DNA of 64,000 bases from Gemmatimonadota bacterium (GCA_016200495.1 JACQES010000074.1:177-64176); one strand, 5' to 3'; numbered from the stretch's first letter, positions 35,101 to 49,115 are shown. Notes: generated by a model not told the origin, from the sequence alone. Numbers and translations: made by a program.

Positions 35101-36276
35101 TCAGGGTCCGGGCCGCAGGCGCACGATCATGCCGTCGTCCAAGGACGGGTGCGTCCGCTCGATTCCGAGGTAAAGGAAGCCGTCCGGCCCCTGCTGCACC
35201 ACCCGGACGCGCCATCGCTGCTCCAGCAGCATGCGCTCCTCGCGCGGCGGTGCGCCCGGGGTGATGATCAGGCGGGCGAGGTAGCGCGGCGTCATGGCCC
35301 CCATGAAGAGGTTGCCCCGCCACGCCGGGAAGGCGGCACCCGTGTAGAACGCCAATCCGCTCAGCGCGGCGGAGGACGCGTAGTGGTGGATGGGCGGTTC
35401 CATGCCGGGAGCCTCCGTGCGCCCGTCGCCCACGAATCCCCCGCTGTATTCGCGACCGAAGGTGACCTCGGGCCAACCGTAGTTCGCACCGCGACGGATC
35501 ACGTTCACCTCGTCGCCACCCAACGGGCCGTGTTCACTCTCCCACAGGTCGCCCGTCGTCGGGTGAAACGCGAGGCCGTGCGGGTTCCGATGCCCCAGGC
35601 TCCAGATCTCCGGTCGGGCCCCGGCGCGGCCCACGAACGGGTTGTCGCGCGGCACGCGTCCGTCATCGAACAACCGGACGATCTTGCCGTGGTCCGTCCA
35701 GAGCTCCTGCGCCAGATCCTGCATGTGCCGCTCGCCGAGTCCGATGAACAGGTAGCCGTCGCGAAGCGCGAGGCGCGCGCCGAAATGGAAGTCGGTCGCG
35801 ACCGCAGGATACGCCGCGAACAGGCGCTGCCGGTCCACCAGCCGGCTGCCGCGCACCTGCGCCCGCTCCACCACGGTCGTCTTTCCGCTGTCCGTGCGCT
35901 CGGCGAATGCGTAGAACACCCATCCATTCCGTGCGTAGTCGGGGTGGACCACGACGTCGAGCATGCCCGCGTCGATCGAGTCGTACACGGCGGGCCCGCC
36001 CTCGAGCGCCGTGACGCGGCCGGATCGCAGGTCCAGCAGTGCGAGCCGGCCGGTGGGCCGGTCGCTGAGCAGTGCGCGTCCGTCCGGGAGAAAGGCGAGA
36101 CCGAAGGGAACGCGAAGGCCGGTGGCGGCGACCTCGGCCACGTATGGACCCGTGAGACCGTCGTAGGTCCAGCGCTGGCCGATCGTGTCGGGCCGGGGTG
36201 ATTGGGCGCTCGTGCGCTTCGGTTGAAGCAGGAACAGGGGAAGGAGCGCCATCGCCATCGCGGTACGCCCGTGCAT
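35101..36276 (-). CDS. Exported PQQ-dependent soluble sugar dehydrogenase (YliI / sorbosone dehydrogenase family)
   Basis: ORF 35101..36306. The ATG at 36276 gives a signal peptide. Motifs: GLAFLPDGRALL, DAGMLDVVVHPDY, HFGARLAL, EIWSLGHRNPHGLAFHP, ESEHGP.GGDEVN.I..G.NYGWP. Confidence 0.88.
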   Translation of the reverse strand: MHGRTAMAMALLPLFLLQPKRTSAQSPRPDTIGQRWTYDGLTGPYVAEVAATGLRVPFGLAFLPDGRALLSDRPTGRLALLDLRSGRVTALEGGPAVYDSIDAGMLDVVVHPDYARNGWVFYAFAERTDSGKTTVVERAQVRGSRLVDRQRLFAAYPAVATDFHFGARLALRDGYLFIGLGERHMQDLAQELWTDHGKIVRLFDDGRVPRDNPFVGRAGARPEIWSLGHRNPHGLAFHPTTGDLWESEHGPLGGDEVNVIRRGANYGWPEVTFGREYSGGFVGDGRTEAPGMEPPIHHYASSAALSGLAFYTGAAFPAWRGNLFMGAMTPRYLARLIITPGAPPREERMLLEQRWRVRVVQQGPDGFLYLGIERTHPSLDDGMIVRLRPGP

Positions 36277-36419
36277 GCGGTCCTCGCCGTTGGGTTGGGG
36301 GCGCACGCAGGGTGCGATGGCCGGCGCCGATGCGGCAACACCGGTGCGACGAGGCAGGCGATTTGTGCGACGAACGGGGCCGTTTGCGACGGCGGCGACG
36401 AGGCGCCTATACTCCGGGC

Positions 36420-37409
36420 GTGTCGTCCCCTCCGCCGCCCACCACCGCGCGATGGCGTGATCCCCGCGCCGCGGGACCAGCCGGACTCCTCGACCCGGCG
36501 TTCTTGCGCTTGCAGTGCGCGTTCTGGCCGCTCTACGGCGCCAGCCTCATGCTCCCATGGCTGGGCCGGTACACGATCGCGTCGATGGTACCCAACAAGA
36601 TCGTGATCGCAGCCACCGGTGCGCTCGCCGCCGCGGGCATCCGGCAGGTACTGCTGCGTACCTGGGATGCCGACCGCACGCCGTGGCGGCACCTGCTGAT
36701 CGCCTTGGTGGCCTCGGCCGTGCTGGGCCTCGCATGGGACCTCGTGCTCTCGACGGTGCTTGGGCACCGCATCGCGCTCGACCTGGGGCCCTGGGGGGCG
36801 CTGCGTGCTGGCGTTCCGCGATTGACGGGCGCCTTCTATCACGCATCGATCCTGGCGATCTGGAGCCTCAGCTACCTCGCCATGTGGCGTGAACCGGGCG
36901 GCGCACCGGAACCCGAAGCGGTCGCCGACATGACGCAGCGCCCGGATGAGCACGCGCATGCAAGCGGCGGCGTGGCCGAGGTCGCCGCACCCACGCGGCT
37001 CGTGCTCCGGGACGGTCGCCGCGTGGTCATGCTCGGGCTGGACGAAATTGACTGGGTGGAGGCCGAGGGCGACTACGTGCGCGTCCACGCCGGATCGAGG
37101 AGGCTTCTGTTGCGCGCCACGCTGGCCGGCACGGCATCCACGCTACCGGCACACCGTTACGTCCGCATTCATCGTTCTACCATCGTGCGCGTCGCCCTCG
37201 TTCGGGAGTTGGTGCCACGACCCAACCGCGAATACGACGTGGTGCTGCGGGGCGGCGTGCGGCTTCGCGCCAGCCGCCGGTACGCGGAGCAGCTCTGCCT
37301 CGCGCTCGGCGTGGGTGCGGGATGCGCACCGCAGGTGAGCACGGACGTGGAACGCACGGGTCCGGAGGTGAGCGGCTCCGGAGCGGCCGTGCCTGACAGC
37401 GGGTCCTGA
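36420..37409 (+). CDS. Membrane-anchored LytTR-domain transcriptional regulator
   Basis: This is the 3' part of ORF 36198..37409. No in-frame ATG lies near the first TM helix. The GTG at 36420 is my best guess for the start, so the start is uncertain. About 4 TM helices are followed by a LytTR domain (IDWVEAEGDYVRVHAG...YVRIHRSTIVRV). Confidence 0.65.
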   Translation: MSSPPPPTTARWRDPRAAGPAGLLDPAFLRLQCAFWPLYGASLMLPWLGRYTIASMVPNKIVIAATGALAAAGIRQVLLRTWDADRTPWRHLLIALVASAVLGLAWDLVLSTVLGHRIALDLGPWGALRAGVPRLTGAFYHASILAIWSLSYLAMWREPGGAPEPEAVADMTQRPDEHAHASGGVAEVAAPTRLVLRDGRRVVMLGLDEIDWVEAEGDYVRVHAGSRRLLLRATLAGTASTLPAHRYVRIHRSTIVRVALVRELVPRPNREYDVVLRGGVRLRASRRYAEQLCLALGVGAGCAPQVSTDVERTGPEVSGSGAAVPDSGS

Positions 37410-39236: not shown

Positions 39237-39710
39237 CTATCGCTGCGCCGGCGGCTTCGCGCCCGGCGGCGCCGCCCCACCCTCCGTCGGATCACGCCCA
39301 TCCTTGGGCGCCCCCGTCCCCGACGATCCCATGAAGATCTTCTTGCCGTCGGCGAACGTCACGTCGCGCCCGTTGGCGCGCTTGAGCGAGTGGTCCTTGG
39401 TCTGGTAGCCGTCCACGATGATCTCGGTGCCGTACTTGAGGCTCTCGCGCGTGAGCCCGCGGCGGAGCAGCACGTTGGGCGTGCCCCCCTCCACCATCCA
39501 CACCTCGGTCCCGCCCTCCTTCTTCGCCACTTCCATGTGGATCCACGAGTGCGGATTCACCCACTCGAGCTTCACCACCTTCCCCTTCAGCTTGATCGGC
39601 GCGTTCGGGTCGAACTCGGCACCGAACGCGTGGTGCGCGTCGGCCGGCGTCGGGAATGCCAGCACGGCGCCGAACGCGGCCGCGGAGGCGATCAGGAAGG
39701 AACGTCGCAT
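39237..39710 (-). CDS. Exported DUF6152-like protein (family name from memory)
   Basis: 157-aa ORF. A signal peptide is followed by HHAFGAEFDPNAPIKLKGKVVKLEWVNPHSWIHMEV... The gene starts 15 nt after the upstream stop. Confidence 0.82.
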   Translation of the reverse strand: MRRSFLIASAAAFGAVLAFPTPADAHHAFGAEFDPNAPIKLKGKVVKLEWVNPHSWIHMEVAKKEGGTEVWMVEGGTPNVLLRRGLTRESLKYGTEIIVDGYQTKDHSLKRANGRDVTFADGKKIFMGSSGTGAPKDGRDPTEGGAAPPGAKPPAQR

Positions 39711-39725
39711 CGGGAACTCCGGGAA

Positions 39726-40781
39726 TCAGGGCTTGGGCTTCTGTGCGGCTTCGCGCTCCATCGACCGCGCGCCGCTCAACACGTTCGCGAGGGCGTAGTT
39801 CCCCTCGTGACAGGCATACTCGTAGATCAGGTCGTCCATCTTGTTGAACGGCAGCTCGCCGCTCCACGGGCTCGCCCACGTCGCCGCGTCCTTCACCGTG
39901 AACCGGTAGAGGATCTTGTACTGCCCCGTGCGGTGGAACTTCTCCGTGATCACCAGGCTGTCGGTCGCGAGCGTGCGCGGCCACTGGCGCGGCGGGAGGT
40001 TGGTTGTCGTCACCACCAGCGTGTCGCCCTCCCAGTGTCCCACCGACTCGCCCATCCACGGACGCATGGTCGCCGGCAGCGAGTGCGGCACGTTCATGCG
40101 GATGATGCGCGTGTCGTGCACCATCTCCGTCATGATCAGCACCACGTCCTTCCGCTGCACGATCGTGTAGTTGTTGTTGTAGAACCCGTTCGGCAGCATC
40201 GGCGGCCCCGCGTTGGAACCGAACGACATGATGCACCGCTCCGCGAGCGGCCGGTTCTCGGGGTTGTCGTACTCGCCCCACTGCCGGAGCGTCTTCGCGC
40301 GCTCGAGCATCCGCGCGCGCGCCGCCGGGATGAGCGGCGCCACCTTCCCCTCGGGCGGGTCCACGATGATCGAGCTCCGCACCTCGCCGTTCACCGTGGC
40401 GAAATGATCGCCCGCGTCGATGTAGAAGAGGTTGTAGCCGCCCACCATGCCCGCGGCGCCCGTGGAGCCGTCGCCCCCCTTGGGCGGCGCGGGACGGTCG
40501 GGGTCCGACGCGCGCGCGCCGCGCTCGAGCGAATCGCTGCGCACCTTCTCGAGCGCCGCCACCTGCGCGGGGCTGAGCGCGCGCGGCTGGCCGTTCGGCC
40601 GCTCGAGGGGCGTCATGGTCGCGTTGCTCCAGTTGCCCTGGAGGTCGGGATGGCCGTCCGGCGTGCGCGGCAGCACCCACCTGGCCGGTGCCTTCTGCGC
40701 GCCCAGCGCCGGCGCCAGCAGCAGGAGCGCCAGCAGGACGCGCACGCTACGGCTTGATCGGGTTCTTGCGCAGGTGCCCAT
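39726..40781 (-). CDS. Exported protein of unknown function (paralogue A)
   Basis: 351-aa ORF with a signal peptide. Motifs GHPDLQGNWSN, WMGESVGHWEGDTLVVTTTN and ITEKFHR... are shared with the upstream gene. The ATG at 40781 overlaps the upstream gene by 35 nt, and an alternative GTG lies at 40745. Confidence 0.82.
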   Translation of the reverse strand: MGTCARTRSSRSVRVLLALLLLAPALGAQKAPARWVLPRTPDGHPDLQGNWSNATMTPLERPNGQPRALSPAQVAALEKVRSDSLERGARASDPDRPAPPKGGDGSTGAAGMVGGYNLFYIDAGDHFATVNGEVRSSIIVDPPEGKVAPLIPAARARMLERAKTLRQWGEYDNPENRPLAERCIMSFGSNAGPPMLPNGFYNNNYTIVQRKDVVLIMTEMVHDTRIIRMNVPHSLPATMRPWMGESVGHWEGDTLVVTTTNLPPRQWPRTLATDSLVITEKFHRTGQYKILYRFTVKDAATWASPWSGELPFNKMDDLIYEYACHEGNYALANVLSGARSMEREAAQKPKP

Positions 40782-41619
40782 ACATCAATTCCTCCACGAA
40801 CTCCACGCACTTGAACTGCCCGAGTCGCGCGTCCGGCTCCACGTGCCGGTACAGCGTGACGCGCACCGACCACGGCTTCGTGAACGTCGCCGGGTCTTCC
40901 ATCGTCGCCTCATACGCGATGTGGTCGGCATCGGTGAGCACCCACTTCTCCGTCACCACCAGGTTTTCCGTGTGGTGGTTCCCCGCCCGGTCGAACCAGG
41001 TGCGGTCGTTGAAGCCGTTCACCTTCACCACCAACGTGTCGCCCTTCCACGTCCCGACCGACTGCCCCATCCACCCGTCCGTCTGCGGCGGGCCCGGATC
41101 CTTGTAGTACACCTGCCGCACCGCCCCCGCGTACTCGTAGGCGATGAAGAACTGGCTCTCGCTCTGCACCACCTGGAACGCATACGGCATGTACGTCGCG
41201 CGCGGCACGCCCGGCAGGTAGCAGCGGATTTCCGGATCGCGCTCCAGCCACTTCGCGCGGTTCTCGTCGCGCTTGGCCAGCGCCTCGGCCGTGTACGGAA
41301 TCGTCCCGCCCACCACGATGCCCGTCCCCGCCGGCACCGACCCCACCGCGCCCATCGCGAGCACTTCCTTCGCGGGCACCGGCACCACCGGGCCCTCGCG
41401 CATCGCGAGCGCGGGACGCGCATCGTGCGGCTCGATGTCCCAGTGCGCGGTCGTCATCGCCTGCCAGATGCCGCTCAGGTCGGGCTTGCCGCTCGCGAGG
41501 CGGGGGATCGGGGGGCGCGCGGGCGCGCTCGCCGCGCGCTGTGCCGCCAATGGCGTCACCACGAGCGCCGATGCCACGAGGCACGACGACAACCGCACCA
41601 TCACGCGACGCATCGTCAT
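40747..41619 (-). CDS. Exported protein of unknown function (paralogue B)
   Basis: This is the last 290 codons of ORF 40747..42168. The ATG at 41619 overlaps the PP2C stop (ATGA). A signal peptide is present. Motifs: GKPDLSGIWQA, WMGQSVGTWKGDTLVVKVNG, VTEKWVL. Confidence 0.82.
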   Translation of the reverse strand: MTMRRVMVRLSSCLVASALVVTPLAAQRAASAPARPPIPRLASGKPDLSGIWQAMTTAHWDIEPHDARPALAMREGPVVPVPAKEVLAMGAVGSVPAGTGIVVGGTIPYTAEALAKRDENRAKWLERDPEIRCYLPGVPRATYMPYAFQVVQSESQFFIAYEYAGAVRQVYYKDPGPPQTDGWMGQSVGTWKGDTLVVKVNGFNDRTWFDRAGNHHTENLVVTEKWVLTDADHIAYEATMEDPATFTKPWSVRVTLYRHVEPDARLGQFKCVEFVEELMYGHLRKNPIKP

Positions 41620-42446
41620 CCCGTCATCCTCGCCACGATCACCGTGACGTTGTCGCTGCCGCCGCCATCCAGCGCCTCCTGCACCAGCGTCTTCGCCATC
41701 ATCTCCGCCGTCCACGGCTTCCCCAGCACCTCGGCGATCCGCGTGTCGTTCACGTGCTTCGTCAGCCCGTCGGAGCACATCAGCAGCACGTCGCCCGCCG
41801 CGAAGTCCACCAGCCCCACGCTCGGCATCATGTCCTGCCCGCCGAGCGCGCTGTAGAGCGTCTGCGAGAGGCTCGAGCGCGCGGCCTGCTCCTCCGTCAT
41901 CGCCCCCGCGTCCACCATCGCCTCGCCCATCGTCTGGTCGCGCGTGAGCGGGCGCAGCCACCCGTTGTGCAGGTACATCGCGCGGCTGTCGCCCACGTGC
42001 ACCACGTACGCGCGCGGCCAGATGAGCGTCACCATCGTCAGCGTCGTCGCCGGCGGGCGGCTCTGGCGCCCGTTCGCCTCGCGCACCTGCTGGTGCGCCT
42101 CGTGCACCCCGGCCTCGAGCTTCTCGAGGAACTCGTGCTCCGCCTCGACGTCGAGGTTGTTGAAGCACGACATCGTCGTGTTGAGGTAGGCCACGAGCGA
42201 CGTCACCGCCGTGCGGCTCGCCACGTCGCCCCCCGCCTGCCCGCCCACGCCGTCGGCCACGGCGAACAGCTGCGCCTCCGCGCTCTTCGCCTGGTCGAAC
42301 ACCGTCGTGTCGTCCAGGTTCGATTGCCGGAGCGCGATCTCCTTGCGCAGCGTCGCGATCACGAAGTGGTCCTCGTTCCGCGTCCGCTTCCGCCCCACGT
42401 CCGAGAGGCCGAAGACGTCCACGCCGCCCGCGAAGATCGCGCTCAT
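41616..42446 (-). CDS. PP2C-family Ser/Thr protein phosphatase
   Basis: This is the 3' part of ORF 41616..42584. The ATG at 42446 overlaps the GTPase stop (ATGA). Motifs: SDVGRKRTRNEDHF, FAVADGVGG, LLMCSDGL, GGSDNVTVIV. Confidence 0.9.
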   Translation of the reverse strand: MSAIFAGGVDVFGLSDVGRKRTRNEDHFVIATLRKEIALRQSNLDDTTVFDQAKSAEAQLFAVADGVGGQAGGDVASRTAVTSLVAYLNTTMSCFNNLDVEAEHEFLEKLEAGVHEAHQQVREANGRQSRPPATTLTMVTLIWPRAYVVHVGDSRAMYLHNGWLRPLTRDQTMGEAMVDAGAMTEEQAARSSLSQTLYSALGGQDMMPSVGLVDFAAGDVLLMCSDGLTKHVNDTRIAEVLGKPWTAEMMAKTLVQEALDGGGSDNVTVIVARMTG

Positions 42447-42949
42447 GCCCCCGCCTTGGGCGCCACCAGCCAGGTCGCCAGCTGCAGGAACATCGCCTCG
42501 ACCCCCTCGCCCGTCTTCGCGCTCGTGCGGAACAGCCCGCCGCGCTTCACCAGCGCCTGGTAATCCTCCACCGAGAGCGCCCACTGGTCCGTCAGGTCGA
42601 TCTTGTTGAGCGCCGTCACGCTCGGCACCGCCCCCGCCGCGGCCGTCGCCACGCGCAGCAGGTCGTCGAGCTGCACCACCGTGTCACGGCGCGTGCCGTC
42701 GCCCACGTAGATGATCCCGTGCGCCCCCTTGAGGTACGACGCCCCGATGTCCTCGCTCGAGTCGCGCCCCGCGAGGTCCCACAGCACGAGCGTCACGTCG
42801 GTCCCCGCCACGTTCACCACCTTGCGGTCGATCTTCACGCCGACGGTGCTGTGGTACTTGTCGGTGAACTTGGTGTGCACGAACTGCTGCACGAGGCTCG
42901 TCTTGCCGGTCCCGAACACCCCGACCATGCACACCTTCTTCTGGATCAT
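42443..42949 (-). CDS. Small Ras/Rab-like GTPase
   Basis: 168-aa ORF. G1 is GVFGTGKTS, the switch I Thr is in YHSTVGV, G3 is WDLAGRD, G4 is NKID, and G5 is TSAKTG. The ATG overlaps the upstream stop (ATGA). Confidence 0.9.
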   Translation of the reverse strand: MIQKKVCMVGVFGTGKTSLVQQFVHTKFTDKYHSTVGVKIDRKVVNVAGTDVTLVLWDLAGRDSSEDIGASYLKGAHGIIYVGDGTRRDTVVQLDDLLRVATAAAGAVPSVTALNKIDLTDQWALSVEDYQALVKRGGLFRTSAKTGEGVEAMFLQLATWLVAPKAGA

Positions 42950-44703
42950 CGCGGCCGGGCTCCGGGTGTGGCGTCGATCGACAGGCGGATGCCAAACGAT
43001 ACGCTCCGGTTGATGCGCGCGCGAGCAGTCGAGTCGCTCTCGCTGAGCGGCTCGCGCGTCCCCACGCCGCGGGTCGTGAGCACCGGCGCCGCGCCGCCCC
43101 CGCGCAGCGCCCCCTCGAGCGCGCGCCGCACCCGCTCGGCCCGCTCGCGGCTCAGGGACTGGTTCGTGGAGTCGGTGCCCGTGGCGTCGGTCCGTCCCGT
43201 CAACGTCAACCCGACCGTCACCCCGTCATCGGCCAGCCCCGCCGCGATCGCGCGCGCATGGCGCGCCGCCGTGCGCACCGCCGCCGCCGCGGCATCATCC
43301 AGCGCCGCGCTCCCCGGCGCGAACAGCACCTGCCCCGCCACCAGCGAATCCCCCGCGCGCACCAGCGCGGCCGGGAGCACCGGCGTCGCCTCGCGCAGGT
43401 CCACCCCCGCCACGCCGGCGGGCCAGCCCGTGCGGCGCGCCACGCGCGCGAGCCACGGCGCATCCGCGGGCCCGCGCACCATCAGCGTCTCGCCGCGCAG
43501 CACTAATGCCGGCTTTCCCACGCTCGTGGGCCCGAGCACCCGCGCGGCGCGCGCCACCACCAGCGACGGCGTGAGCGACACGTAGGGCTCCCACTGCTGC
43601 GTCACGCGCGCCGGCTCCACGCCGGCCGCCCGGAGCACCGTGGCGGGGGTGGCACCGCTCGGGTCGCTCAGCCCCCGCACCTCGTGCGTCCGCCACCCGC
43701 GCGACGCCTCCACCACCACGATCCCCGGCGTCGCGCGCAGCGCCCGCACCGCACGGTTGAACTCGAGCACGCTCCAGGTCCACCACGCCGCGATCACCAG
43801 CGCCACGAGGCCCAGCCCCACGACCCATGGCGTCCAGTTCACCTTGGCGCCCACCGGCTGGTCGGTGTCGAGCACCGTCACGAGGCAGTCCTCGAGCAGC
43901 GGCTGCGCCGCCTCGAACGGCGTCGTGTCCCCCTCGAACTCGGCCAGCGCGCTCGGGAACTGCCCGTGCACCCCCTCGATCGTCTCCTGCAGCCGGCGCA
44001 GGTAGCTCTCCGGCGCCTGGCCGCGCACCACCGCGGCGAGCAGCGCCTTGGGCCCCTGCTCCACCATCACCGTGAGTTCGCCCACGCTGAAGGTGCGGAG
44101 CCCGCCCACCTCCTTCTCGGCCGAGAACGAGTCGCCCACGAAGTCGCGGATCGCGGTGAGCATCCCGCTCACGAGGTCGGCGTCGGGCACCGCGAGGTTG
44201 GGCGGGTGCGCCTGCGCGAGCAGCAGCCCCGTCTCGCGATGCACCAGGAAGACCTGCTCGACGCGGTACACGAGCGCGTGCTTGATCACCACCGCCGCGT
44301 ACGGCACCCCCGTGCGCCAGCTCTCGAACCGCCACGAGAGGCCGCGCGCCGAGAACGAGTGCTGCATCGCGCGGTTGATCGAGCCCACGAGCTCGGCCAT
44401 CGTCTCCGCGATCGCCTTCCGGATCGCCGGCCCCAGCACGGGGAAGATGGCGTCGGCGAACTCCCCCGGCTTCCGCCGCACCGACTCGCTGATCGCCCCC
44501 TCGACCGTGGGGGCGAGCGCGCGCGCCAGCTGCCGGTCCTGCGCCGCGCGCAGCACGATCGCCTCGGGCAACCGCGCCGCGAGCCGCTCCGCGCTCAGGC
44601 GGTTGTCCTCGACCTTCGCCTCCAGCTGGTCGAGCCGCGCTCGCTCCTCGCCGACGAGGATGCGCCGGAGTTTCGCGAGGTCCGGCGCGGACGTCTCGTC
44701 CAC
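42946..44703 (-). CDS. Single-pass membrane protein: cytoplasmic coiled-coil plus roadblock/longin-like region, TM helix, periplasmic OmpA/MotB-like peptidoglycan-binding domain
   Basis: 585-aa ORF with a GTG start at 44703. TM helix: WTPWVVGLGLVALVIAAWWTW. The C-terminus has VLFAPGSAALDD...LTLTGRTDATGTDSTNQSLSRERAERVRRAL, the OmpA_C signature. The roadblock-like call for VEQVFLVHRETGLLLAQA...LVSGMLTAIRDFV...ELTVMVEQGPKALLAAVVRG is inference. Confidence 0.85.
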   Translation of the reverse strand: MDETSAPDLAKLRRILVGEERARLDQLEAKVEDNRLSAERLAARLPEAIVLRAAQDRQLARALAPTVEGAISESVRRKPGEFADAIFPVLGPAIRKAIAETMAELVGSINRAMQHSFSARGLSWRFESWRTGVPYAAVVIKHALVYRVEQVFLVHRETGLLLAQAHPPNLAVPDADLVSGMLTAIRDFVGDSFSAEKEVGGLRTFSVGELTVMVEQGPKALLAAVVRGQAPESYLRRLQETIEGVHGQFPSALAEFEGDTTPFEAAQPLLEDCLVTVLDTDQPVGAKVNWTPWVVGLGLVALVIAAWWTWSVLEFNRAVRALRATPGIVVVEASRGWRTHEVRGLSDPSGATPATVLRAAGVEPARVTQQWEPYVSLTPSLVVARAARVLGPTSVGKPALVLRGETLMVRGPADAPWLARVARRTGWPAGVAGVDLREATPVLPAALVRAGDSLVAGQVLFAPGSAALDDAAAAAVRTAARHARAIAAGLADDGVTVGLTLTGRTDATGTDSTNQSLSRERAERVRRALEGALRGGGAAPVLTTRGVGTREPLSESDSTARARINRSVSFGIRLSIDATPGARPR

Positions 44704-44706
44704 GCG

Positions 44707-45276
44707 CTATCCCTTCTTCCCGTTGGCGTTCGGATCCGCCGCGATCTGCGCCGCCATCGCCCCGAGCATCGAGGCCAAGGCCTGCCGGTCCGTCTTGGCG
44801 TGGCTCAGGTCGGCGTGCGACTTGGCCAGCTCGGCCGAGAGCTTCTCGTGCACCCGGTTGAGCTCGTTGGCCGCCGCCTTCGCGTGCGCGATCAGCTGGT
44901 CGCGCAGCTCCGCGTCCGAGAGCGACGTCGCCTGCTCCAGCGACACGTGCCGCTTCTCCGCCTGCTTGAACGCGTCCTTCACCTCCGCCGCGAGCTCGCG
45001 CAGCGCCTGCACGCGCGCGTCGTTCTCGCTCGCCACGCGCTCGTGCAGCGCCTGCGTCTCCTTCTTGGCGAACTGGTCGAGTTCGGCCGCGCGCTTGAGG
45101 AAGTCCGCCCGCAGCGACTCGACCTCCGCCTGGAACCGCTCCTCGATGTTGCGCAGCCGCGTCTCGACGGTGCGCATCTGCCCGCCGAAGAGGATGTCCC
45201 GCACGGCATCCAGCGATTCCGGCGTCTGCTCGGCGCCCGCCTGGGCGCCCTTCTTGTCCGTCGCGTTCGGGCTCAT
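44707..45276 (-). CDS. Coiled-coil protein of unknown function
   Basis: 189-aa ORF that is charged and heptad-like throughout (RLRNIEERFQAEVESLRADFLKRAAELDQFAKKE...). It has good GC3. Its stop lies 3 nt before the next start. Confidence 0.8.
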   Translation of the reverse strand: MSPNATDKKGAQAGAEQTPESLDAVRDILFGGQMRTVETRLRNIEERFQAEVESLRADFLKRAAELDQFAKKETQALHERVASENDARVQALRELAAEVKDAFKQAEKRHVSLEQATSLSDAELRDQLIAHAKAAANELNRVHEKLSAELAKSHADLSHAKTDRQALASMLGAMAAQIAADPNANGKKG

Positions 45277-45306
45277 GAATCACTCATCGTCAGAAGAACC
45301 AGCTGG

Positions 45307-45400
45307 CATCCACATCGCTCATCCACATCCGTCATCGCTGCACGAGGCCATGTCCCAAACCTCGCAAGCGCCCATCACCCCAACCCATCAACACCCATCA
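45307..45400. repeat. Short direct-repeat motifs in a 245-bp intergenic gap
   Basis: CATCCACATC occurs at 45307-45316 and 45320-45329. CCCATCA occurs at 45371-45377, 45384-45390 and 45394-45400. On the coding (minus) strand these read GATGTGGATG x2 and TGATGGG x3. Confidence 0.5.
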
Positions 45401-45449
45401 CCCGCATCGCACGCCGCGCTTCTCGCCGTCCTCCGTGCCCCCGTGCCTC

Positions 45450-45470
45450 TGTGGTGATTCCGCCACCACA
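45450..45470 (-). terminator. 7-bp hairpin about 50 nt downstream of the HD-GYP gene stop
   Basis: TGTGGTG (45450-45456) pairs with CACCACA (45464-45470), with a 7-nt loop. There is no U-tract, so the terminator role is uncertain. Confidence 0.25.
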
Positions 45471-45520
45471 TGCACGCCCTCGGTGTGCCCGGTGTGCTCG
45501 GTGGTGCAAGCTTTCTCGAA

Positions 45521-46762
45521 TCAACTCGCGGGCGGCGCCACCGGCGCCTCCCCCACCGGCTTCCGATCCTCGTGCGGATCCGGCGCCGGCGCCTTCACCT
45601 GCATGCTCTCGTCCACCACCGCCACGCGCTTCTCCCACGTGTTGATCATCCCCGTGAACGCCTTCACCACGTCGGGATCGAAGTCGTGCCCGATCCCCTT
45701 CTGGATGTGCCCCACCACCCGCTCCGCCTCCCACGCCTCGCGGTACGGCCGGTTGGTGCGCAGCGCGTCGTACACGTCGCACACGTGCACGATCTTGCTC
45801 GCCTGGTGGCAGTCGCGCCGGAACCGCATGCTCGGGTACCCGCCGCCGTTGAGCATGATGTGGTGCTCGTAGGCCACGATCGCCGCGACGTCGAGCTGCC
45901 GGTCGCTCTCCACGATGATCTTGGCCCCGTCCACCGGGTGGCGCCGCATCACCGCGAACTCCGCGTCGCTCAGCTTCCCGGGCTTGTTCAGGATCTCCTT
46001 CGGGATCCGCACCTTGCCCAGGTCGTGCAGCAGCCCCGCCACCCCGAACGACCGCACGTCCTTGGGGCCCATCCCCATGAACTCGGCCAGCGCCATCGCC
46101 AGCACGCTCACGTTGAGCGAGTGCGTCGTGGTGTACTCGTCGAACTCGCGCAGCTGCAGCAGCGGGATCACGATCTGGTTGTCGCCGTGCATCGCCATCG
46201 AGAGCGAGCGCACCACCGTCTCCGCCTCCATGAGCGGCAGCTCGCCCCGCGTCATCACTTCCTCGTGCATCCAGCGGATCGTCTCCGCTTCCTCGCCCAG
46301 GGTGTACGCGATCGTCGCCGTCGGCAGCATCTGCGACTCCGGCTTGAGCGTCCCCTGCTCGCCCCGCACCCCGATCGCGCCGAACTTGATGCTCGTCCGC
46401 CGCTCCGTGCGCACCCCCGACGTGTCGATCGCCTGCATCGTGAGCCGCGCCAGCACTTCGCTCAGGAACACCTCGAAGTCCTCGCGGCTCACGTCCGCGT
46501 CGAACTCGAGCCGCTGGATCCCCGCGTTGGCGAGCCGCGTCCCCCAGTCCCAGTCCGACAGCTCGCGGATCGACACGTTCCCGTACACCACCTCGGTGCC
46601 CAGGAACGAGAAGAGCGGTCGCGGGTCCTTGGCCTGCAGGTCGCGGAGCCGCGCGTACGCCTTGTCCGTCGAGCGCTCGCGCGCCGGGTGCCCGTCGCGA
46701 TAGAGCACCATCGTCGACAGCGCCTGCGCGAAGTTCGTGAGGAAGAGGGCGGCCGGGGTCAT
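45521..46762 (-). CDS. HD-GYP domain protein (predicted cyclic-di-GMP phosphodiesterase) with an N-terminal sensor-like domain
   Basis: 413-aa ORF. Motifs: HSLNVSVLAMALA, GLLHDLGK, HHIMLNGGGYP. The ATG overlaps the upstream stop (ATGA). Confidence 0.92.
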   Translation of the reverse strand: MTPAALFLTNFAQALSTMVLYRDGHPARERSTDKAYARLRDLQAKDPRPLFSFLGTEVVYGNVSIRELSDWDWGTRLANAGIQRLEFDADVSREDFEVFLSEVLARLTMQAIDTSGVRTERRTSIKFGAIGVRGEQGTLKPESQMLPTATIAYTLGEEAETIRWMHEEVMTRGELPLMEAETVVRSLSMAMHGDNQIVIPLLQLREFDEYTTTHSLNVSVLAMALAEFMGMGPKDVRSFGVAGLLHDLGKVRIPKEILNKPGKLSDAEFAVMRRHPVDGAKIIVESDRQLDVAAIVAYEHHIMLNGGGYPSMRFRRDCHQASKIVHVCDVYDALRTNRPYREAWEAERVVGHIQKGIGHDFDPDVVKAFTGMINTWEKRVAVVDESMQVKAPAPDPHEDRKPVGEAPVAPPAS

Positions 46763-48849
46763 GTGGGGTCGGGAATGGCCCGCATCGCCACCGAGGCGCG
46801 TCGCGTCACGGCCGTGCGGACCTCATCATCGCGCGACTTGGCCGCGAGCGCCAGCACGTCCTGCGCCTCCGGCTTGTCGGCGAAGTGCTGCGCCAGCGCC
46901 TCGATCGACGCCAGCATGATCGGCGTCGTGTCCGCCAGCTTCTTGCCGAACAGCCCCTTCTTCCCCTCCACCTTGGCCAGCAGCCACGGCAGCAGCGTCG
47001 GGCTCCGCGTCGCCCCGGCCACCTTCACCGCGAGCGGCTTGAGCGCCTCGGGCATCGAGCCGTCGTCCACGCGCTCCAGCAGCAGCCGCACCGCGTCCGG
47101 CGGGCAGCCGCGCGCCGCCGCGCCCAGCGCGTTCGACACGTTGCGGTCGTCGCCGTCCATCAGCCCGATCTTGATCCCCTCGTCGCGCAGCAGCTGGTCC
47201 TTGAACATCATCCGCTGCGCCTCGCGCCGGACCGTCGCGTCGGGGTGCCGCGCGTAGTCGAGCGGCGTGAACCCGTCGGGCCACGCCGGCAGCCGCGAGA
47301 TCGCCACGAGCAGCAGCCGCTGCGTCGCCCACCGCGCCAGCGGCAGCCGCGCGAAGATCGTCGGCGCCGCCTCCATCCCGATGCTCGCGATCAGGTCCAC
47401 GAGCGCGCCGGCCTTGCGATCGTCCGCGATCTCGAGCGTGTCGAGCAGCGGCTCCACCGCCGCGTGCTTGAGCCGGTTGACCACGCGCTCCAGCAGCGGC
47501 AGGTCGAACGTGTCCGCCACCAGCAGCGCGTGCAGCCGCTCGGGCGTCGCGATGTACTCGAGCATCGCCTCGCGCGCGTAGCTCTCCGCCGCCTGGTCGG
47601 CCAGGTCGAACACCACCCCCAGTTCCCCGTTGTCGGTGAGCCCGTCCACGGCGCGCCACACCGCGTCGCCCGCGCTCTGCACCTCGAGCGCCATCGCCAC
47701 CATGCGCCGCGGCTCCGCCGGGTACCGGTCCACGCCGCTGAACAGCGGCGACGCCTTCGCCATCCCCTCGAGCGCCACCCGGTACGCGTCCGGGTTCGGG
47801 TCGTCGAGCGACCACTCGCCGATCAGCCGCTGCACGTGCTCGCGCAGCGCCTCGTCCATCTGCGGCCGCACCGGCTCCTGCCCCATCTCCGCGTGCGCCG
47901 CGAACTTGGTCAGGAGCCGCATCATCGAGTGCGAGATCGTCTGCTTCGACGTGTCCGCCGCCGCCTGCACGATGTCCACCACCGCGTCCACCGACATCCC
48001 CGCCGACGCGTTCAGCACGAACTTGTTCCGCTGCATCGTGTCGCCCGACATGTCCATCAGCCGCTCGAGCGTCGCCGGGTTGAGCGACGCCACCAGCCGC
48101 GAGATCCGCTTCTGCAGCGCGGCCGCCTCCTTCCCCTGCTTCGTCTTGAGCTCCTCGGCGATCTGCAGCAGGTAGCCCACCACCACCTGGTCGTACGCCA
48201 CGTCCTTGCCGTGGTCGTCGATCGCCTGCGCCACCACCACCGGGTCCGTGCTCGGCAGCTCCTCGTCGTTCGCGGACTCCTTCGCCAGCGCCGCGCGCGC
48301 GAGCCCGATCCAGAGCGCCGCCGACCGCGCCCCGCCCGCGCTCCGCCCGTCCATGTCGTCGTCGTCGTCCCCGTCGTCGTCGAGCAGCTCCAGCTGCTCG
48401 AACGTCAGGGGAAAGAGCCGCGCGTGCGCCCACTGCTGCAGCACCTCCGGGTCGCCCAGCCCGAGCGGCAGCTCCATGCGCGAGGCGTCCACCGCCACCG
48501 TCGCCAGGAAGTCGGCCAGCTCGTCGTTGGTGATCCCGGCCGAGAAGCGCACCGCCCCCAGCTGGTGCCGGTGCAGCCGCTGGGCGAGTTCCCGCAGCAG
48601 CGGGTGGTTCGGGTCGGTCGCCACCCCCTCGATGATCAGCTGCCGTCGCGCCACGCCGATCGAGAGCGTCGCGCGCTCGTCCTTGAGCAGCGCCCCCATG
48701 CGCGACAGGAGCCCCCGGACCGCCTGCGAGAGCAGGGGGTGCCCCTCCGGGTAGATCGCGTTCTTGTGCAACGCGATCGAGAATTCGATCAGGAAGTCGG
48801 CCAGCTCGCGCGAGAGCGCGGTGCTTTCGCCGGCGCCGGGGGTGCTCAT
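46759..48849 (-). CDS. Large all-helical (HEAT/ARM-like?) protein; its N-terminal domain is homologous to that of the downstream HD-GYP protein
   Basis: ORF 46759..48975, with the ATG at 48849 ([40 protein letters not shown]...). Composition is normal and helix-rich across about 696 aa. An acidic run [14 protein letters not shown] is present. Confidence 0.82.
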
Positions 48850-49115
48850 CCGCTGCGGAGGGGGGACCGGGGAGGGGGCTTCGCCAATATCACCCCCACC
48901 ACGAGGGGCGGAAAGAGCCCGCCACAGAGGGAAATCGGGGCGCCGCGCGGACCCCGCGCAGTGCCCGCAGCGCACGTGCGGTCATTTCGTCCGTGACCGT
49001 CGCGGGTTGCGCGCCAATCGGGTAGCTTTCGCGCGCTTGCGAAGCCGCCCGGCCGTGGCCGTGGCGTGCGCCGCGCTCGAGCCACCGCCCGTCCTCCACC
49101 GCCTCGGAGTCCCGC

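Follow-up and report, generated by a model that had tools for sequence, protein, structure and literature searches.

We find that four closely packed genes on the minus strand of a 64-kb stretch of Gemmatimonadota DNA (below, the window), between positions 41616 and 45276, form a Group 1 Rup (Rup1) cassette, in which a coiled-coil protein (DUFY), a membrane protein with an OmpA domain (DUFX:OmpA, hereafter DUFX) and a small Ras-like GTPase (Rup) are encoded in that order, and which is extended in the Gemmatimonadota lineage by a gene for a PP2C-type phosphatase. Since the gene order, the types of component and the missing glutamine in the G3 region of the GTPase all match the Group 1 Rup system of Wuichet and Søgaard-Andersen (2014; Genome Biol Evol 2014/15, PMC4316618), we assign the cassette to that system. 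The best explanation of the cassette as a whole, to which we give a probability of roughly 55%, is that DUFX is a wall-anchored platform with a roadblock-like domain that regulates Rup, and that the PP2C phosphatase is the output. An earlier note on this DNA had singled out the GTPase and the membrane protein as a coupled gene pair. The pair is real, but two members of the cassette had been missed, namely the upstream coiled-coil DUFY and the downstream PP2C.

In the 2014 survey the prokaryotic small Ras-superfamily GTPases were split into the MglA and Rup families, and the Group 1 Rup GTPases were described as lacking the G3 glutamine and as being encoded together with a coiled-coil cytoplasmic protein (DUFY) and a DUF-transmembrane-OmpA protein (DUFX:OmpA). 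The product of a fourth gene was described as an output module, either GGDEF/EAL or a histidine kinase, in which an invariant glutamine lies in the N-terminal region (PMC4316618). Table S2 of that paper lists the arrangement DUFY>DUFX:OmpA>Rup in cyanobacteria, Nitrospira and alpha-, gamma-, delta- and epsilon-proteobacteria; Gemmatimonadetes and Acidobacteria are without a Rup entry in it, and PP2C goes unmentioned. No Rup member was characterised at the time of publication, DUFX was treated as a domain of unknown function, and no Rup was counted as coupled to an MglB homologue. Rup1 clusters with eukaryotic Rab/Ras/Rho/Ran in trees (PMC4316618; bioRxiv 10.1101/2024.02.28.582541), and later papers use the name only for a reference clade, grouping with eukaryotic Rab/Ras/Rho/Ran and Asgard RasL. 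A literature search for Rup, Rup1, six locus tags of the 2014 table and roadblock/OmpA/GTPase returned no experimental study of the system. The arrangement had been called unrecognised in the earlier note, and it is indeed neither MglA/MglB nor experimentally characterised. However, its core has been in the literature as a computational prediction since 2014, as Group 1 Rup, so the implied novelty was overstated. What is new here, namely the predicted fold of DUFX, the PP2C variant, the covariation of Arg/Lys with it and the wider distribution, is a refinement and not a discovery.

Conservation of the cassette

Relatives of the 585-amino-acid (aa) DUFX of the window are encoded in at least 572 species-level genomes, as found by a pattern search combined with tblastn on one genome per species, and the 80 best loci (L001–L080) were examined. 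These loci come from Gemmatimonadota, several classes of Acidobacteriota, Verrucomicrobiales, one deltaproteobacterium and one cyanobacterium of the Phormidiaceae, and the cassette spans at least five phyla (Gemmatimonadota, Acidobacteriota, Verrucomicrobiota, Proteobacteria and Cyanobacteria). Rup follows DUFX on the same strand in all 66 loci with room downstream, and DUFY precedes DUFX in 71 of the 73 loci with room upstream. As order and strand are kept in 66/66 loci, chance adjacency of the gene pair is excluded, and the survey of co-occurrence that had been proposed for the pair finds it conserved across phyla. The genes farther out are not conserved, as seen in two gene neighbourhoods (L081 and L082) that were reached via the relative proteins P0066 and P0002. 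A Mesorhizobium plasmid holds the same cassette, annotated as hypothetical protein, OmpA family protein, 'Rab family GTPase' and adenylate/guanylate cyclase, in that order.

Two further observations concern the distribution. The Nostoc flagelliforme plasmid pNFSY07 (L085, 3783-10915) carries genes for a hypothetical protein, an OmpA family protein, a Rab family GTPase, a second hypothetical protein and an ATP-binding protein. After this cassette come genes for an anti-sigma regulatory factor and for a PP2C phosphatase of the SpoIIE family, which hints that a link of Rup1 to PP2C and partner-switching signalling may reach beyond Gemmatimonadota. Separately, two loci (L017 and L019) lie in metagenome-assembled genomes (MAGs) labelled Thermoanaerobaculia (Acidobacteriota), and their DUFX proteins are 50–53% identical to that of the window, which is the Gemmatimonadota range, while DUFX of the other acidobacterial loci is about 40% identical to it. 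A PP2C gene follows the GTPase gene in L017, and the contig of L019 stops short of that point. Mis-binning or horizontal transfer could account for this pattern.

The Rup GTPase and the gene that follows it

The GTPase of the window matches the Pfam family Ras (E 2.9e-26; Roc and Arf also match) and the NCBIfam model TIGR00231 small_GTP. The complete set of G1–G5 motifs ascribed to it in the earlier note is present, with GVFGTGKT (residues 10–17) as G1, Thr35 within YHSTVGV as G2, DLAG (58–61) as G3, NKID (115–118) as G4 and SAK (143–145) as G5. The same note had read an arginine in place of the catalytic glutamine (DLAGRD), and the alignment bears this out: the closest solved relatives of Rup are eukaryotic Rabs (Rab4A, E 6.9e-21), and the HMMER alignment to Rab4A pairs WDLAGRD with WDTAGQE and puts R62 at the position of the glutamine. 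None of 71 cassette GTPases has glutamine at this position, corresponding to Gln61 of Ras, where R, K, E, A, D, T or S is found instead. The window Rup is 48% identical to the Mesorhizobium plasmid GTPase, 41–58% identical to the cassette GTPases of the acidobacterial, verrucomicrobial, deltaproteobacterial and cyanobacterial loci, and only 28% identical to the GTPase of L049, a locus from an unclassified MAG.

Directly after Rup, the window encodes a protein that matches Pfam PP2C_2 (E 6e-16) and NCBIfam Stp1_PP2C (172.6 bits, under the 230-bit cutoff), and inspection of the translation finds the motifs RxxNED, DGxGG, SDG and DN-T kept. The presence of this gene divides the 80 loci in two. 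A PP2C gene stands immediately after Rup in 38 of the 38 loci with room in L001–L048, and in 0 of 28 in L049–L080. In the second group the products of the post-Rup gene share an N-terminal domain, roughly 150 residues long, in which QQK/QxAR(D/E) residues are conserved; beyond it they are PAS proteins, hybrid histidine kinases or adenylate/guanylate cyclases, which fits the published fourth gene. A hidden Markov model (HMM) of this N-terminal domain matches every locus of L049–L080 with room downstream, and finds no match at E<=1 in the 64-kb window or in L001–L048.

The presence of PP2C co-varies with arginine or lysine at the Gln61 position of Rup: the residue is R in 41 and K in 2 of the PP2C-group loci, and E, A, D, T or S in the others. 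Arginine at this position is characteristic of the lineage and goes with the PP2C form, and as the split between Arg/Lys and E/A/D/T/S follows the PP2C split, it is not a catalytic substitute used by the whole family.

The membrane protein DUFX and the coiled-coil protein DUFY

A hydropathy scan of DUFX finds one hydrophobic segment, residues 292–314, so the cytoplasmic part comprises about 290 residues and not the roughly 330 of the earlier note. The single transmembrane (TM) helix and the periplasmic OmpA domain of that description stand. Pfam OmpA matches residues 460–565 (E 2.5e-8; 34.6 bits against a gathering cutoff of 27.2 bits), the C-terminal part also has NCBIfam matches of YiaD, YfiB and Pal type, and a Foldseek search with the model of the whole protein finds Pal, OprF, YfiB and the C-terminal domains of MotB (E 5.5e-7 and weaker). 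The domain holds the motif GRTDxxG...NxxLSxxRA, in which all of 48 homologues keep D506 and R521. The Asp/Arg pair of the TD...LSxxRA motif provides the peptidoglycan-ligand residues in OmpA-like domains.

The cytoplasmic part of DUFX is both widespread and strongly conserved. With its 290 residues as query, a search of 1.84 billion cluster representatives returned 4484 clusters (at 50% identity) with E<=1e-3, of which 1656 had E<=1e-30. The N-terminal motifs are LRxxLxGxE (with R13), a near-invariant FPVxGPAIRKAI (87–98) and WR (124–125). Computed over 150 representatives clustered at 50% identity, the positions conserved in at least 95% are R13, P88, G91–R95, W124–R125, R130, G132, E149, H155, D191 and R227–G228. 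No part of the entire cassette is better conserved than the roadblock-like domain.

The assignment of this domain comes from structure prediction. The AlphaFold2 (AF2) model of full-length DUFX, made with 48 homologues, has a mean predicted local distance difference test score (pLDDT) of 80. It begins with three long helices of low confidence (6–33, 38–77 and 79–115) and two shorter ones (119–131 and 135–143), followed by strands 144–155 and 161–165, helix 175–193, strands 203–207, 210–216 and 220–228, and helix 232–248. Beyond this domain the model continues with the TM helix (291–324), two periplasmic alpha/beta modules of high confidence (328–456) and the OmpA domain. As Foldseek with the whole 585-aa model gave matches to the OmpA domain only, residues 116–288 were modelled again on their own, and this model (pLDDT 82; predicted TM-score 0.74) has the same topology as in the full model. 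Against the PDB, all of the top 50 Foldseek matches of residues 116–288 belong to the roadblock/longin superfamily (E 2e-4 to 3e-3, 21 of the 50 at E<=1e-3; probability 1.00; target-normalised TM-score 0.45–0.69). Among them are AP sigma subunits, Thermus MglB, both on its own and in complex with MglA (3t12), Asgard Roadblock3, MglC and Ego3, and also the C-terminal domains of Rag proteins, LAMTOR subunits, Mon1-Ccz1, VAMP7, Sec22b, Ykt6 and axonemal LC7. The beta-alpha-beta-beta-alpha module first read from the sequence gives way to a predicted alpha-beta-beta-alpha-beta-beta-beta-alpha order over residues 135–250. A roadblock fold is predicted and the gene pair is conserved, so neither the lack of such a fold nor a lack of conservation of the pair speaks against the earlier proposal.

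DUFY carries two conserved motifs, RD[IL]LFGxQM near its N-terminus and KTDRxxLA near its C-terminus, and the former is kept from Gemmatimonadota to Mesorhizobium. Residues 22–35 of DUFY (45180-45220) and residues 9–22 of DUFX (44640-44680) have a similar L..[VL]R.[IL]L.G.[EQ] stretch ahead of the first long helix. Homology of the two N-termini was considered and rejected, as BLASTP was not significant and hhalign found only the short motif (E 0.007, probability 5%). The common stretch is a motif resemblance and not homology, and may reflect a shared binding motif or chance.

Proposed mechanism and alternative explanations

We suggest that DUFX would be a bitopic inner-membrane protein whose periplasmic OmpA domain fixes it to the peptidoglycan. 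Its roadblock/longin-like domain, which would probably form dimers like those of MglB and Ragulator, would be the docking and regulatory platform for a soluble Rup that has no lipid anchor of its own. By analogy with MglB, DUFX could act as a GTPase-activating protein (GAP) and/or a guanine nucleotide exchange factor (GEF), and by analogy with Ragulator it could provide the membrane anchor. Since Rup has no catalytic glutamine, we propose that its own GTP hydrolysis would be slow and that a partner would have to contribute or orient the residues needed for catalysis. Docking of Rup at the wall-anchored platform, in a manner set by the bound nucleotide, would then control the output enzyme, which would be PP2C here and, in other phyla, a protein with the common N-terminal domain (histidine kinase, nucleotide cyclase or PAS protein). 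In this way the module would be an envelope-linked molecular switch that feeds cytoplasmic signalling, with a logic comparable to that of the conservon or of Ragulator-Rag.

A more specific proposal, which we put forward tentatively and which is somewhat more apt to fail than to hold, is that the DUFX domain is a divergent roadblock/longin domain and the long-sought GAP and/or GEF of Rup1, that a peptidoglycan-bound receptor thereby sets a Rab-like switch, and that PP2C together with Arg/Lys is the Gemmatimonadota form of the system. If this is true, MglA and Group 1 Rup, the two Ras-superfamily lineages of bacteria that have conserved partner genes, would both use platforms of the roadblock fold, and the platform principle of MglB, Ragulator and the longin GEFs would extend to the Rup1 lineage and fill in its missing regulator. 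Rup1 would then be a bacterial pathway from transmembrane receptor to small G protein to effector enzyme, and such a pathway would become directly testable. The Gemmatimonadota form would route the signal to Ser/Thr dephosphorylation via PP2C, using an intrinsic Arg/Lys at the Gln61 position. With at least 572 species-level genomes and protein clusters in the thousands, Rup1 cassettes are moreover very common, and represent a large uncharacterised block of signalling.

Several points weigh against the regulatory platform. At the sequence level, Pfam Robl_LC7 matches 1 of 19 members of the DUFX family, with E 0.19 in a scan at E<=10, and a DUFX profile search against PDB sequences returned nothing at E<=10. 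The fold is that of a predicted structure, with moderate scores (TM-score 0.45–0.69) and several matches of large root-mean-square deviation. The roadblock/longin-like module of the earlier note is favoured by the AF2 topology and the top 50 Foldseek matches, but finds no counterpart in Robl_LC7 or the PDB-sequence profile. We therefore accept residues 135–250 as predicted to be roadblock/longin at the level of the fold, not as a member of the sequence family; the absent sequence signal explains why no Rup was counted as coupled to MglB in 2014. Contact between Rup and DUFX and a GAP or GEF activity of DUFX are suggested by analogy with MglB and Ragulator, PP2C is a putative output by virtue of its adjacency to Rup, and no PP2C substrate was identified nearby. 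The periplasmic modules of DUFX (residues 325–456) could, speculatively, be a sensing part. The RD[IL]LFGxQM motif of DUFY carries a conserved glutamine, and the GAP proposed by Wuichet and Søgaard-Andersen differs from ours, in that the invariant glutamine lies in the N-terminal domain of the output protein (PMC4316618).

These last two points lead to the alternative that fares best, namely that DUFX is only an anchor and scaffold, or an effector, and that the GAP or GEF is DUFY, which would offer its glutamine in trans, or the N-terminal domain of the output protein. DUFY is as constant in its position as DUFX (71/73 loci), the glutamine of its motif is conserved from Gemmatimonadota to Mesorhizobium, the QQK/QxAR domain is found in every locus of L049–L080 with room downstream, and it is textbook knowledge that roadblock proteins such as Ragulator can be mainly scaffolds. 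However, the HMM of the fourth-gene N-terminal domain finds it neither in the window nor in any of the 48 Gemmatimonadota-type loci, so this domain is not a universal GAP, and the idea of 2014 that it supplies the glutamine fails for this lineage. The most conserved part of the cassette is, moreover, the roadblock-like domain of DUFX, not a part of DUFY or of the output protein. Its predicted fold is that of MglB, which to our knowledge is the only characterised GAP of a bacterial small GTPase. We consider a scaffold-only role of DUFX unlikely, though it deserves serious attention.

An OmpA/MotB-like peptidoglycan anchor with a single TM helix could also belong to a mechanical or polarity apparatus that spans the envelope and places a machine at fixed sites of the wall, as in MglA-controlled motility or a stator of MotB/TolR type. 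Polarity in Myxococcus is controlled by a small GTPase with a roadblock partner, as textbooks describe, and PADLOC gives weak domain-level matches to ZorB/MotB and to the coiled-coil tail of ZorA. The gene that consistently follows Rup encodes a signalling enzyme (histidine kinase, cyclase, PAS protein or PP2C), however, and neither the window nor L081–L085 holds a partner gene of MotA/TolQ/ExbB type. The TM segment of DUFX has no Asp or Glu, and DUFX as a MotB/TolR/ExbD stator subunit is rejected for want of a protonatable TM aspartate and a MotA-like partner. Such an apparatus is improbable in our view. A role in anti-phage defence, such as that of an NTPase with a wall-anchored sensor resembling Zorya, is hardly credible and was rejected because no full-length PADLOC match to the models of one system was found: the weak matches cover generic domains, with ZorB (E 4e-5) matched by the OmpA domain alone, ZorA (E 2.7e-4) by the coiled coil alone, and a third match to the PP2C-like model PDC-M21C (E 4e-6), the GTPase has no PADLOC match at all, no nuclease or other toxic effector is present, and the cassette is widespread in whole phyla among housekeeping genes (transketolase, metabolic enzymes).

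Comparison with known systems

The window GTPase resembles the published Group 1 Rup proteins in being a single-domain Ras-like GTPase (about 160–180 aa; <240 aa) with Ras-type G1–G5 motifs, in keeping the aspartate of DxxG and in having no glutamine after G3. The adjoining DUFY and DUFX:OmpA genes stand in the same order, and Mesorhizobium, a genus in the paper, holds the same cassette with a 48% identical GTPase. It differs in that Gemmatimonadota are not among the paper's 27 Group 1 entries, that the fourth gene here encodes a stand-alone PP2C without the glutamine-bearing N-terminal domain, and that all members of the window's subgroup have Arg or Lys at the Gln61 position.

With the MglA-MglB polarity switch of Myxococcus and Thermus the cassette shares a bacterial Ras-superfamily GTPase and an adjacently encoded partner that is predicted here to have the roadblock fold; MglB structures, including 3t12, are among the best Foldseek matches of residues 116–288. 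MglA-type GTPases have a G3 motif without the conserved aspartate and an intrinsic arginine finger plus glutamine, whereas the window GTPase is Rab/Ras-like, keeps the G3 aspartate (D58) and is without the glutamine. MglB is small and soluble, but the roadblock-like domain of DUFX is fused to long helices, a TM segment and an OmpA domain, and, unlike MglB, no cassette protein matches Robl_LC7 in the Pfam scan.

The likeness to Ragulator-Rag is an analogy of logic only, in that a membrane-tethered platform of roadblock fold would serve a small GTPase that governs a signalling enzyme; LAMTOR subunits and the C-terminal domains of Rag proteins are among the Foldseek matches. Ragulator differs in being eukaryotic and lipid-anchored via LAMTOR1, and the Rags have roadblock domains of their own. 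An analogy of Group 1 Rup with the actinobacterial conservon was proposed before (PMC4316618). Both are multi-gene cassettes that tie a small GTPase to a membrane sensor and a roadblock protein, here on the strength of the predicted DUFX fold. In the conservon (CvnA-D/Mfp), however, the GTPases CvnD/MfpB belong to the MglA family, the roadblock protein CvnB/MfpD is encoded by a separate gene, and CvnC (DUF742) and the sensor kinase CvnA are present, whereas an OmpA domain is not.

Locus and neighbouring genes

The features of the cassette are collected in Table 1. The start codon of the GTPase had been said to overlap the stop codon of the 585-aa protein, and it does so as ATGA; a second overlap of 4 nucleotides (nt) joins Rup to the translationally coupled PP2C gene, and both recur in L081 and L082, where the gene calls were independent. 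The stop codon of DUFY and the GTG start of DUFX are separated by 3 nt. The GC content of the window is about 0.70–0.77. In a consensus scan of 41300-45700, neither strand showed a sigma-70-like promoter and the coding (minus) strand showed no terminator-like site; the scan's three terminator-like matches are all on the plus strand, within the coiled-coil gene. An 'OmpA family protein [Gemmatimonadetes bacterium]' from a MAG has the same sequence as the 585-aa protein (100% identity).

Table 1. Genes, domains and overlaps of the Rup1 cassette in the window (domain boundaries of DUFX in part from predicted structure).
Feature	Position	Strand	Basis
DUFY, 189-aa cytoplasmic coiled-coil protein	44707..45276	(-)	Open reading frame (ORF); only weak coiled-coil-type Pfam matches; = 'DUFY' of PMC4316618 Table S2
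DUFX:OmpA, 585-aa bitopic inner-membrane protein, whole gene	42946..44703	(-)	GTG start, GAAGGG before start
DUFX residues 1-134, long cytoplasmic helices (predicted)	44302..44703	(-)	AF2 helices; motif conservation
DUFX residues 135-250, predicted roadblock/longin-like alpha-beta-beta-alpha-beta-beta-beta-alpha domain	43954..44301	(-)	AF2 models, Foldseek
DUFX residues 292-314, single transmembrane helix	43762..43830	(-)	Hydropathy scan; AF2 helix 291-324
DUFX residues 325-456, two periplasmic alpha/beta modules (predicted)	43336..43731	(-)	AF2 pLDDT above 90
DUFX residues 457-575, OmpA-like peptidoglycan-binding domain	42979..43335	(-)	Pfam, NCBIfam, Foldseek
ATGA start/stop overlap, DUFX/Rup	42946..42949	(-)	GTPase ATG (42949-42947) on TGA of 585-aa ORF
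Group 1 Rup small GTPase, 168 aa, R62 at Ras-Gln61 position	42443..42949	(-)	Pfam, NCBIfam, motifs, Rab4A alignment
ATGA start/stop overlap, Rup/PP2C	42443..42446	(-)	PP2C ATG on GTPase TGA
PP2C-type Ser/Thr phosphatase, stand-alone, 276 aa, output slot	41616..42446	(-)	Pfam PP2C_2, NCBIfam Stp1_PP2C

Upstream of the cassette lie genes for an HD-GYP-type protein of 413 aa (45521-46762, minus strand; HD_5, E 3e-22) and, overlapping it by 4 nt, for a 738-aa protein (46759-48975, minus strand) without a Pfam or NCBIfam match. The two proteins have a similar N-terminal F..F..AL....Y..GHP stretch, which is not significant by BLASTP (E 1.7). We rejected both as members of the cassette, as L001 and L002, the two closest relatives, are the only loci where they adjoin it, and as the HMM finds no fourth-gene N-terminal domain in them. 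Downstream, at 39237-41604 on the minus strand, two probably paralogous secreted proteins of 285 and 351 aa are encoded, followed by a DUF6152 protein. The former two have signal-peptide-like starts and common [KH]PDL.G.W motifs, with no Pfam match, and these genes are not kept beside the cassette in other genomes. Farther away, and apparently unrelated to the cassette, a 403-aa ORF on the plus strand (36198-37409) has a C-terminal LytTR DNA-binding domain (E 1.9e-17) and a hydrophobic-looking N-terminal half, as in a membrane-bound LytTR regulator.

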